Program-made: the position numbers and the translations under genes
Part shown: piece after piece, positions 35,501 through 37,349 of the stretch
How the letters are laid out: every line of letters starts with the position of its first letter
Position numbering within the stretch: position 1 is the stretch's first letter
Assembly: GCF_003334315.1 (NCBI RefSeq)
Contig: NZ_QOWR01000019.1
DNA: 64,000 bases
Reading direction: 5' to 3' (one strand)
From: Escherichia coli
GTDB taxonomy: Bacteria > Pseudomonadota > Gammaproteobacteria > Enterobacterales > Enterobacteriaceae
The notes under the pieces: generated by a model
What the model saw: the letters and a program-made list of their open reading frames with translations, nothing else
Told to the model about the DNA's origin: nothing
Database searches by the model: none

Positions 35501-36583
35501 AAAGATATCGCCGGTGAGCCGGTGGTTGCCGATCTGGCGAAAATGCCGCACTTGTTGGTTGCGGGGACTACCGGTTCCGGTAAATCTGTCGGTGTGAACG
35601 CGATGATCCTGAGCATGCTTTATAAAGCACAGCCAGAAGATGTGCGTTTCATCATGATCGACCCGAAAATGCTGGAGCTTTCGGTGTATGAAGGCATTCC
35701 GCACCTGTTAACGGAAGTCGTTACTGATATGAAAGATGCCGCCAACGCGCTGCGCTGGTGTGTTAACGAGATGGAGCGTCGGTATAAACTGATGTCTGCG
35801 CTGGGTGTGCGTAATCTGGCGGGTTATAACGAAAAAATTGCTGAAGCCGATCGCATGATGCGTCCGATTCCAGACCCGTACTGGAAGCCGGGTGACAGTA
35901 TGGATGCCCAGCATCCGGTGCTGAAAAAAGAACCATACATTGTGGTGTTGGTTGACGAATTTGCCGACCTGATGATGACGGTAGGTAAAAAAGTGGAAGA
36001 GCTGATAGCACGTCTGGCGCAAAAAGCCCGTGCCGCGGGTATCCACCTCGTACTGGCAACTCAGCGTCCATCGGTTGATGTTATTACTGGTCTGATTAAA
36101 GCGAATATTCCGACCCGTATCGCCTTTACCGTATCCAGTAAGATTGACTCACGTACCATTCTTGATCAGGCTGGCGCGGAATCACTGCTGGGGATGGGGG
36201 ATATGCTCTACTCTGGGCCGAACTCCACGTTGCCGGTACGTGTCCATGGTGCTTTTGTTCGCGATCAGGAAGTTCATGCCGTGGTGCAGGACTGGAAAGC
36301 GCGTGGTCGCCCACAGTATGTTGATGGCATCACTTCCGACAGTGAAAGCGAAGGTGGCGCGGGCGGTTTCGATGGCGCTGAAGAACTGGATCCGTTGTTC
36401 GATCAGGCGGTGCAGTTTGTCACTGAAAAACGCAAAGCGTCAATTTCTGGCGTACAGCGTCAGTTCCGCATTGGTTATAACCGTGCAGCGCGTATTATCG
36501 AACAGATGGAAGCGCAGGGGATTGTCAGCGAACAGGGGCACAACGGTAATCGTGAAGTGCTGGCCCCACCGCCGTTTGACTAA
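32594..36583 (+). CDS. ftsK: DNA translocase FtsK
   Basis: N-terminal TM domain, long Pro/Gln-rich linker, C-terminal FtsK/SpoIIIE motor (GTTGSGKS) and gamma domain; TTG start; 1329 aa. Confidence 0.95.
34810..35042 (+). repeat. in-frame 39-bp tandem repeat x6 in the ftsK linker ([10 protein letters not shown][QP]QY units)
   Basis: six near-identical 13-codon units read directly from sequence. Confidence 0.85.
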
Positions 36584-36592
36584 TTAATGCAT

Positions 36593-36626
36593 TGCCGGAT
36601 AAGGCGCGGTAGCGTCGCATCCGGCA
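36593..36626. repeat. REP element in ftsK-lolA intergenic region
   Basis: tgccggataaggcgcggtagcgtcgcatccggca matches REP consensus. Confidence 0.8.
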
Positions 36627-36737
36627 CTCTATCAACTGAAAATTCAGTATTTTCTTCTTTCCTCAAGCTGATTATTAGCCTGGAATAGAGAGTAGAGGGA
36701 ACTCCCGATCGGGAGTGACGTAATTTGAGGAATAATG

Positions 36738-37349
36738 ATGAAAAAAATTGCCATCACCTGTGCATTACTCTCAAGCTTAGTAGCAAGCAGCGTTTGGGCT
36801 GATGCCGCAAGCGATCTGAAAAGCCGCCTGGATAAAGTCAGCAGCTTCCACGCCAGCTTCACACAAAAAGTGACTGATGGTAGCGGCGCGGCGGTGCAGG
36901 AAGGTCAGGGCGATCTGTGGGTGAAACGTCCAAACTTATTCAACTGGCATATGACACAACCTGATGAAAGCATTCTGGTTTCTGACGGTAAAACACTGTG
37001 GTTCTATAACCCGTTCGTTGAGCAAGCTACGGCAACCTGGCTGAAAGATGCCACCGGTAATACGCCGTTTATGCTGATTGCCCGCAACCAGTCCAGCGAC
37101 TGGCAGCAGTACAATATCAAACAGAATGGCGATGACTTTGTCCTGACGCCGAAAGCCAGCAATGGCAATCTGAAGCAGTTCACCATTAACGTGGGACGTG
37201 ATGGCACAATCCATCAGTTTAGCGCGGTGGAGCAGGACGATCAGCGCAGCAGTTATCAACTGAAATCCCAGCAAAATGGGGCTGTGGATGCAGCGAAATT
37301 TACCTTCACCCCGCCGCAAGGCGTCACGGTAGATGATCAACGTAAGTAG
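36738..37349 (+). CDS. lolA: outer-membrane lipoprotein carrier protein LolA
   Basis: 203-aa ORF with signal peptide [21 protein letters not shown]. Confidence 0.93.

Follow-up and report, generated by a model that had tools for sequence, protein, structure and literature searches.

The periplasmic lipoprotein chaperone LolA is essential, and cells adjust its level under envelope stress. Just upstream of the lolA start codon, in the 64-kb stretch of Escherichia coli DNA analysed here (the window), stands a perfect palindrome with a GATC sequence at its centre. An earlier note on this DNA had suggested two uses for such symmetry, as the operator of a dimeric regulator or as a short stem-loop in the lolA leader. 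Which of these, if either, does the palindrome serve? We approached the question by setting the palindrome against published transcription starts, against its alleles in complete E. coli genomes and against the lolA loci of related genera.

The palindrome and its genomic setting

The window derives from the E. coli chromosome: a 201-nt query over the site found its match at the ftsK-lolA junction in all 5,426 complete genomes of the species. The same palindrome sequence is found at 937335–937350 of K-12 MG1655 (NC_000913.3), where lolA is annotated from 937372. The features around the site, in window coordinates, are as follows.

36583: end of ftsK, followed in gene order by a spacer of 151–154 nt, lolA and rarA
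about 36594–36629, no strand assigned: REP element after the ftsK stop, from repeat finding and weak, sub-threshold naRNA4/REP matches; outside the hairpin
36701–36706, + strand: 5' arm of the predicted stem-loop, ACUCCC
36707–36710, + strand: loop, GAUC
36711–36716, + strand: 3' arm, GGGAGU
36717–36720, + strand: GACG tail directly 3' of the stem (within GGGAGUGACG), with column identities of 0.72–0.97 against a neutral 0.48
36728–36731, + strand: Shine-Dalgarno sequence GAGG; AGGA is invariant in alignment A1
36735 and 36738, + strand: in-frame ATG codons of lolA, the latter being the annotated start; stop at 37349

The two ATG codons are adjacent (36735–36740), and lolA is annotated either as a 204-aa form (MMKKIA...) or as a 203-aa form. 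The 14-mer ctcccgatcgggag lies at 36702–36715; the earlier note had its sequence right and its position (36703–36716) one base off, and the perfect symmetry extends one base further on each side, giving a palindrome of 16 bp, ACTCCCGATCGGGAGT, at 36701–36716. Its 5' end is 34 nt upstream of the ATG at 36735 and 37 nt upstream of the ATG at 36738, and its 3' end falls 18 nt before the former and 21 nt before the latter. The Dam site GATC (36707–36710) is the exact centre of the palindrome in both the window and K-12, and forms the loop of the hairpin.

The REP element that had been described as adjoining the palindrome is indeed in the same intergenic region, but about 72 nt upstream. It is in the REP region (36584–36630) that the spacer varies most among E. 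coli strains, through a 4-bp indel and several substitutions, and the 110 nt downstream of it are near-invariant, the hairpin loop excepted. Other genera differ in this part of the spacer. Most carry a conserved module, TTGCAAAG-N-(T/A)GGGTAAATAAG, just past the ftsK stop and about 95–125 nt upstream of lolA (loci L008, L010, L024, L026, L027, L033, L039 and others), and in E. coli and Salmonella the REP element takes its place. This module might be a second promoter, with TTGCAA as the -35 element, or a binding site. Buttiauxella izardii (L061) and Enterobacteriaceae bacterium ESL0689 (L100) have an ftsK-lolA gap of only about 15–30 nt, and the upstream box and -10 hexamer described below are absent along with the hairpin, so that lolA in these two must rely on ftsK-internal or read-through transcription.

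Palindromes of this size are expected in a sequence of this length. Perfect palindromes of at least 16 bp numbered one in the window versus 1.1 expected from Markov shuffles, and those of at least 14 bp numbered seven versus 4.5 ± 2.2. The pattern CTCCCN4GGGAG, with up to one mismatch, occurred once versus 0.79 expected, and there was no second copy at this stringency in the 64 kb. The count is thus at chance level and the mere presence of the palindrome is no evidence of function; its non-randomness rests on conservation in other genomes. A 30-mer at the site has a median of one location per E. coli genome, and the site thus belongs to no repeat family.

Position relative to the lolA transcription start

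Whether the palindrome belongs to the promoter or to the transcript depends on where lolA transcription begins. A Cappable-seq study (Ettwiller 2016, PMC4782308) gives a start at U00096.2 936551 on the + strand (score 4.17, enrichment 3.7), which we carried to the window by way of the lolA start, U00096.2 936592 corresponding to window position 36735. Together with the alignment, this start defines the following promoter features.

36640–36658, + strand: conserved stretch AAAATTCAGTATTTTCTTCT, which includes the conserved box TCAGTATTTTCTTC (36645–36658), a candidate RcsB box centred near -42.5
36681–36686, + strand: putative -10 hexamer TGGAAT, from alignment A1; it ends 7 nt before the mapped start and is non-canonical, with no A at position 2
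36694, + strand: proximal lolA transcription start, the A of GTAGAGG, from Cappable-seq (a single dataset with a low score)

With the start at 36694, the palindrome occupies +8 to +23 of a 44-nt lolA 5' UTR and is not in the promoter; the end of the hairpin is 11 nt from the GAGG of the Shine-Dalgarno sequence. The mapping of the start, which the earlier note had proposed as the way to tell promoter from leader, therefore places the palindrome in the leader by this one published dataset. Of two further sources, the Kim 2012 supplement gives lolA starts only inside ftsK, without the proximal start at 36694, and in the part of it covered here contains no Klebsiella lolA start; in the Mendoza-Vargas 2009 supplement lolA appears only as a primer.

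Transcription of this stretch is not confined to the proximal start. On the + strand Cappable-seq lists starts in the 3' part of ftsK at U00096.2 936182 and 936358 (window 36325 and 36501), the first of which is also in Kim 2012, and a start inside lolA at U00096.2 936642 (window 36785), which Kim 2012 assigns to rarA. Longer transcripts from the ftsK-internal starts thus also reach lolA, and the pattern suggests that the ftsK-lolA-rarA stretch has several internal promoters.

A consensus scan of 36400–36900 returned no sigma-70-like promoter, and we infer the proximal promoter from the alignment and the published start because it is non-canonical and missed by such a scan. The -10-like hexamer is TGGAAT in Escherichia, Citrobacter and Salmonella, and TAGAGT, TACATT, TACAGT or CAGAAT elsewhere; its positions 4 and 6 are invariant (alignment A1). 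A sigma-E promoter of the form GGAACT-N16-GTAAT was considered and rejected, as its -10 element is mismatched and its start would land on the Shine-Dalgarno sequence.

The conserved upstream box resembles an RcsB site

The box in AAAATTCAGTATTTTCTTCT is conserved at the equivalent position in nearly all Enterobacteriaceae (loci L001–L099), and its distance to the -10-like hexamer is 22 nt in all five genera counted (E. coli, Kosakonia, Enterobacter, Klebsiella and the genus of locus L097). Compared with the published RcsAB box consensus, TaAGaatatTCctA (PMC3950696), it agrees at 9 of 14 positions in E. coli and at 11 of 14 in Enterobacter (TAAGCATATTCTTC). The pattern alone is not significant, as a search with a degenerate RcsB pattern gave 448 matches versus about 600 expected. 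According to a title cited in PMC5651002 (Tao et al. 2012), lolA is induced via the Rcs phosphorelay, and a candidate RcsB box upstream of lolA fits this reported induction. The box is probably the site of Rcs induction of lolA.

Other symmetric sequences are found in this neighbourhood. The imperfect palindrome ACTGAA-AA-TTCAGT (36635–36648), with a GA-N4-TC core, extends into the 5' part of the conserved box; no such core is present in the 16-bp palindrome at 36701–36716. In Klebsiella, Raoultella, Enterobacter, Leclercia and Silvania (loci L039, L041, L046, L048, L059 and L075), GC-rich hairpins of unrelated sequence, for example CCTGCC-TTCG-GGCAGG, occupy the spacer between box and hexamer, where E. 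coli has none. These promoter-spacer hairpins may be 3'-end structures of ftsK.

Conservation of the arms across genera

For comparison between genera we used 80 lolA loci (one genome per species) and 13 loci of more distant relatives, together about 90 loci of Enterobacteriaceae and Erwiniaceae. Four conserved items stand upstream of lolA in this set: the box AAAATTCAGTATTTTCTTCT, the -10-like hexamer, the hairpin arms followed by GACG, and the Shine-Dalgarno sequence. What is preserved at the palindrome is the pattern CTCCC, 3–5 variable nt, GGGAG(T/C)GACG.

Column identities were computed as mean pairwise identities over 71 distinct Enterobacteriaceae leaders, with the four-fold degenerate sites of lolA in the same genomes as the neutral reference. 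The columns of the 5' arm stood at 0.76, 0.64, 0.94, 0.77 and 0.97, those of the 3' arm at 0.94, 0.97, 0.94, 0.97 and 0.90, and those of the loop at 0.38–0.66; the 43 four-fold degenerate sites averaged 0.48, with 2% of them reaching 0.9. Arms at 0.64–0.97, set against this neutral level and against the loop, indicate purifying selection on the arms and not on the loop. Conservation is stronger in the 3' arm and the GACG tail than in the 5' arm, a possible sign of a further constraint on the sequence as such.

The loop varies in both length and sequence. It measures 3–5 nt between genera and up to 8 nt in Erwinia, and reads GGTC, CGTC, CATC, CGTT, GCGTC and others outside Escherichia, the only genus with the perfect palindrome and its GATC. 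Conservation in close relatives, on which the earlier note had made its reading depend, therefore holds for the hairpin arms and fails for the perfect symmetry and the GATC. The hairpin itself was absent in Trabulsiella (a clean loss), Mixta, strain ESL0689 and Buttiauxella izardii, and the element is thus dispensable. In the Enterobacter clade only CCC/GGG (three G-C pairs) is left of the helix, along with C·A mismatches, which on the - strand would be wobbles.

Alleles within E. coli

We surveyed the alleles of the palindrome in 5,427 E. coli records (5,426 complete genomes).

ACTCCC-GATC-GGGAGT: 3,900 records
GCTCCC-GGTC-GGGAGT: 791 records
ACTCCC-GATT-GGGAGT: 469 records
ACTCCC-GGTC-GGGAGT: about 260 records
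other alleles: about 7 records; a rare GTTC loop is seen at locus L004

Both GATC and perfect symmetry are missing in about 28% of E. coli genomes (about 1,520 of 5,427 records). Changes in the sequenced variant alleles are confined to the second and fourth positions of the loop and to the outermost pair, and the 10 core stem positions are untouched. In the outermost pair G·U replaces A-U, and it can pair only in the RNA of the + strand. The Dam site pointed out at the centre of the palindrome is thus present and not conserved: about 28% of E. coli genomes lack it, as do all non-Escherichia genera examined; the perfect 16-bp symmetry with its central GATC is an Escherichia-specific accident of the loop sequence.

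Evidence for a stem-loop in the RNA

Folding of the RNA gave a 6-bp stem with a 4-nt loop (-11.7 kcal/mol for a 24-nt context), a fold in which the Shine-Dalgarno sequence stays single-stranded. Taken leader by leader, the z-scores of folding were modest (p = 0.013 in E. coli, p > 0.1 in many others). Among the 71 close relatives a covariation test was not significant, with 86.7% of cells paired and the same figure in the shuffled control; it is uninformative there because the arms barely vary. RNAalifold recovered only three pairs on the close relatives.

The more distant lineages carry altered helices at the same distance from the ATG, the 3' end of the stem lying 19–28 nt upstream. These comprise GGCCCC/GGGGCC, in which three pairs are changed on both sides relative to ACUCCC/GGGAGU; UUCCCG/CGGGAA; GCUCCC/GGGAGC, which completes a path from A-U through G·U to G-C; CGGCCCC/GGGGUUG; UCCCUG/CAGGGA in Pantoea; CCAUC/GAUGG in the Cedecea group; and an extended CUCC-GCGCC...GGCGC-GGAG helix in Izhakiella. 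Compensatory helices are found at loci L097, L036, L056/L062 and L098, that is, in a handful of lineages and in a comparison fitted to the hairpin: the pairs were taken from hairpin-anchored tables, which lean towards structure, as MAFFT placed no gaps across the differing loop lengths and left the arms out of register.

In Salmonella, Kluyvera, Klebsiella and locus L098, U·G or G·U pairs favour the helix of the + strand over that of the - strand in stability, at -6.6 versus -3.4 kcal/mol in Salmonella and -6.9 versus -3.1 kcal/mol in Kluyvera. The short stem-loop that had been suggested for the lolA leader is therefore supported: the published start places it in the 5' UTR, its arms are kept as its loop varies freely, and compensatory and wobble changes preserve the helix.

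Searches for known elements at the site were negative. No terminator-like site appeared in the scan of 36400–36900, and Rfam at permissive thresholds returned over the palindrome only chance-level matches (snoR130 and HOXB13-AS1, E about 1–3) far below the gathering scores; its REP-like (naRNA4) matches, at 36593–36655 only, are outside the palindrome. Full-text searches of the literature library used found no paper on the lolA leader.

Two other features upstream of the lolA start codon deserve mention. The octamer TTCCTCAA (36659–36666) is the perfect complement of TTGAGGAA (36725–36732), which holds the lolA Shine-Dalgarno sequence 58 nt further downstream. By complementarity, TTCCTCAA could mask the Shine-Dalgarno sequence in ftsK read-through transcripts; we set this pairing aside, as it is not in the predicted minimum-energy fold and is limited to Escherichia, Citrobacter and Salmonella. 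A mini-ORF in the leader, GUG-ACG-UAA, was likewise rejected, having no spacing to a Shine-Dalgarno sequence and a frame that is not conserved.

A stem-loop of the lolA leader as the best explanation

Our preferred reading, which we hold to be moderately probable, is that the palindrome codes for a stem-loop of the lolA leader RNA whose structure is conserved. The palindrome would be the DNA template of a short RNA stem-loop, with a G+C-rich stem of 5–6 bp and a loop of 3–5 nt, in a leader transcribed from a weak proximal promoter that would bear the RcsB-box-like element, and selection would keep the two arms able to pair in the mRNA of the + strand. The role of the stem-loop is probably that of a putative element for mRNA stability or for insulation of the ribosome-binding site. 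In the predicted leader a 7-nt tail would precede the hairpin on its 5' side, and an A/U-rich stretch (GUAAUUU) beside the Shine-Dalgarno sequence would follow it. In E. coli mRNA decay, a 5' hairpin beside an A/U-rich stretch and a Shine-Dalgarno sequence is an arrangement that hinders attack or scanning by RNase E or insulates the ribosome-binding site. The lolA hairpin could likewise hinder 5'-end-dependent RNase E attack or scanning, or could keep the ribosome-binding site free of pairing with upstream sequence; the latter gains plausibility from the two sources of lolA transcripts, the proximal start and the starts inside ftsK.

A more specific version of this reading, to which we assign a low probability, is that the hairpin and the conserved 3' segment GGGAGUGACG form a dedicated cis-regulatory element, recognised by a protein or a small RNA or acting as a hairpin-stabilised pause at the Shine-Dalgarno sequence. 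Were it true, LolA synthesis would be tuned post-transcriptionally to lipoprotein trafficking or envelope stress, as a second layer over Rcs control.

Alternative explanations

The simplest alternative is that the hairpin has no function of its own, the region being conserved for other reasons (as initially transcribed sequence, for its Shine-Dalgarno-like GGGAG, or through slow divergence), with the hairpin as a by-product and the palindrome as chance. The chance-level count of palindromes, the lack of significant covariation among close relatives, the modest folding z-scores and the several lineages without the hairpin or with a 3-bp remnant all agree with this. It has difficulty, however, with arms that are far above synonymous-site conservation when the 4 nt between them are not, with helices that are re-paired or replaced at the same position in independent lineages, and with 10 core stem positions that every sequenced E. 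coli variant allele avoids; on balance we find it rather unlikely. Binding of a dimeric regulator to CTCCC-N4-GGGAG at +8 to +23, blocking or modulating lolA transcription, would draw on the strong conservation of the arm sequence itself, and not of pairing alone, in Escherichia, Citrobacter, Klebsiella and Kosakonia, above all of GGGAGTGACG, and a repressor can act from just downstream of +1. An operator should nevertheless hold its half-sites at one spacing, and here they are 3, 4 or 5 nt apart between genera and 8 nt apart in Erwinia; arms of unrelated sequence still pair in some lineages, G·U-type substitutions spoil the symmetry of the DNA while preserving pairing in the RNA, and the site has no second copy in the window and, as a 30-mer, a median of one place per E. 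coli genome. To our knowledge the palindrome matches no known regulator motif. The operator put forward in the earlier note thus fares poorly, on its spacing, on its unrelated arms and on a position downstream of the transcription start, and we consider it improbable. A Dam switch, with protein binding or transcription governed by the methylation state at the centre of the palindrome, is hardly credible: GATC does stand at the exact centre in the window and in K-12, but it gives way to GATT or GGTC in about 28% of E. coli genomes and is gone from all other genera examined while the arms persist, it is a lone site and not part of a cluster, and since an even-length perfect palindrome must have one of 16 palindromic tetramers at its centre, GATC would turn up there one time in 16.

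Two further alternatives accept the hairpin and give it other work. RNA polymerase could be held at the Shine-Dalgarno sequence, while a ribosome loads, by a hairpin-stabilised class I (his-type) pause at U36726/G36727. The elemental pause consensus known from the NET-seq literature is G-10 Y-1 G+1, and the geometry read from the sequence agrees with it, with G36717 (conserved at 0.89) at -10, U36726 at -1, G36727 at +1 and the end of the stem (36716) at -11. Against this, a G-N8-YG match is expected by chance about once in 32 positions, and in many genera UUAAGG, with A at +1, replaces UUGAGG, which leaves the pause decidedly improbable in our estimate. The hairpin might instead serve the upstream gene, as a 3'-end or processing element of ftsK read-through RNA that terminates transcription, blocks exonucleases or is cut by an RNase, and transcripts that start inside ftsK do carry it. 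Yet no U-tract follows the stem and the terminator scan of 36400–36900 was empty, the proximal promoter elements precede the hairpin, whose distance from the lolA ATG is fixed, and the Term-seq supplementary files covered here (Adams 2021) have no 3' end in this spacer; we take such a role to be very unlikely.

A leader stem-loop, the reading that we prefer, would make the sequence between the start site and the ribosome-binding site a handle, easy to mutate, for asking if lolA is subject to post-transcriptional control. It also removes a false lead, the perfect palindrome and the Dam site being lineage-specific and not a conserved operator or an epigenetic switch. In other respects the lolA leader hairpin is ordinary and leaves current understanding unchallenged.

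Comparison with known systems

The palindrome lacks the defining features of an intrinsic terminator, a REP element, an Rfam family and a Dam-regulated operator, and is none of these. As an intrinsic terminator it was rejected on the sequence that follows the stem, GACGUAAUUUG, which has no U-tract. Like REP and BIME sequences it is intergenic and G+C-rich, and it shares its spacer with a true REP; unlike them it is single-copy and placed relative to the lolA start in all genera, and its sequence shows no relation to that of the REP 72 nt upstream. With the Dam-regulated operators of pap and agn43 it has in common a GATC in symmetric sequence near a promoter, but their GATC sites are clustered, and that of lolA is single, in a variable loop, and not conserved even within E. 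coli. The likeness to RcsB-activated promoters, whose RcsB or RcsAB box directly precedes the -35 region, concerns the promoter box only, which is 14 bp long, at a fixed 22 nt from the -10 hexamer and centred near -42.5; the palindrome, unlike an RcsB box, has no GA-N4-TC and lies downstream of +1. As at class I (his-type) pauses, the stem ends 11 nt upstream of a match to G-10/Y-1/G+1, though for lolA the downstream consensus is not conserved in many genera.

The nearest likeness in build is to 5' stabilising hairpins. The lolA element would act in the manner of 5'-UTR hairpins known from other enterobacterial mRNAs, its place in the strict ompA-type class of 5'-terminal stabilisers being less certain because of its long unpaired 5' tail. 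In classical 5'-terminal examples 0–4 unpaired nt precede the stem. Hairpins of the ompA type stabilise E. coli mRNAs, and hairpins obstruct the 5'-end-dependent access or scanning of RNase E, as studied by Belasco and colleagues. The lolA hairpin differs in that 7 unpaired nt precede its stem in E. coli (predicted stems in other genera start at +1 to +10 from a start placed there by inference) and in being weak or absent in some lineages. Like the ompA-type hairpins it is short, stable and G+C-rich, near the 5' end of an mRNA for an envelope protein and upstream of an A/U-rich segment and the Shine-Dalgarno sequence, with a structure conserved across enterobacteria.
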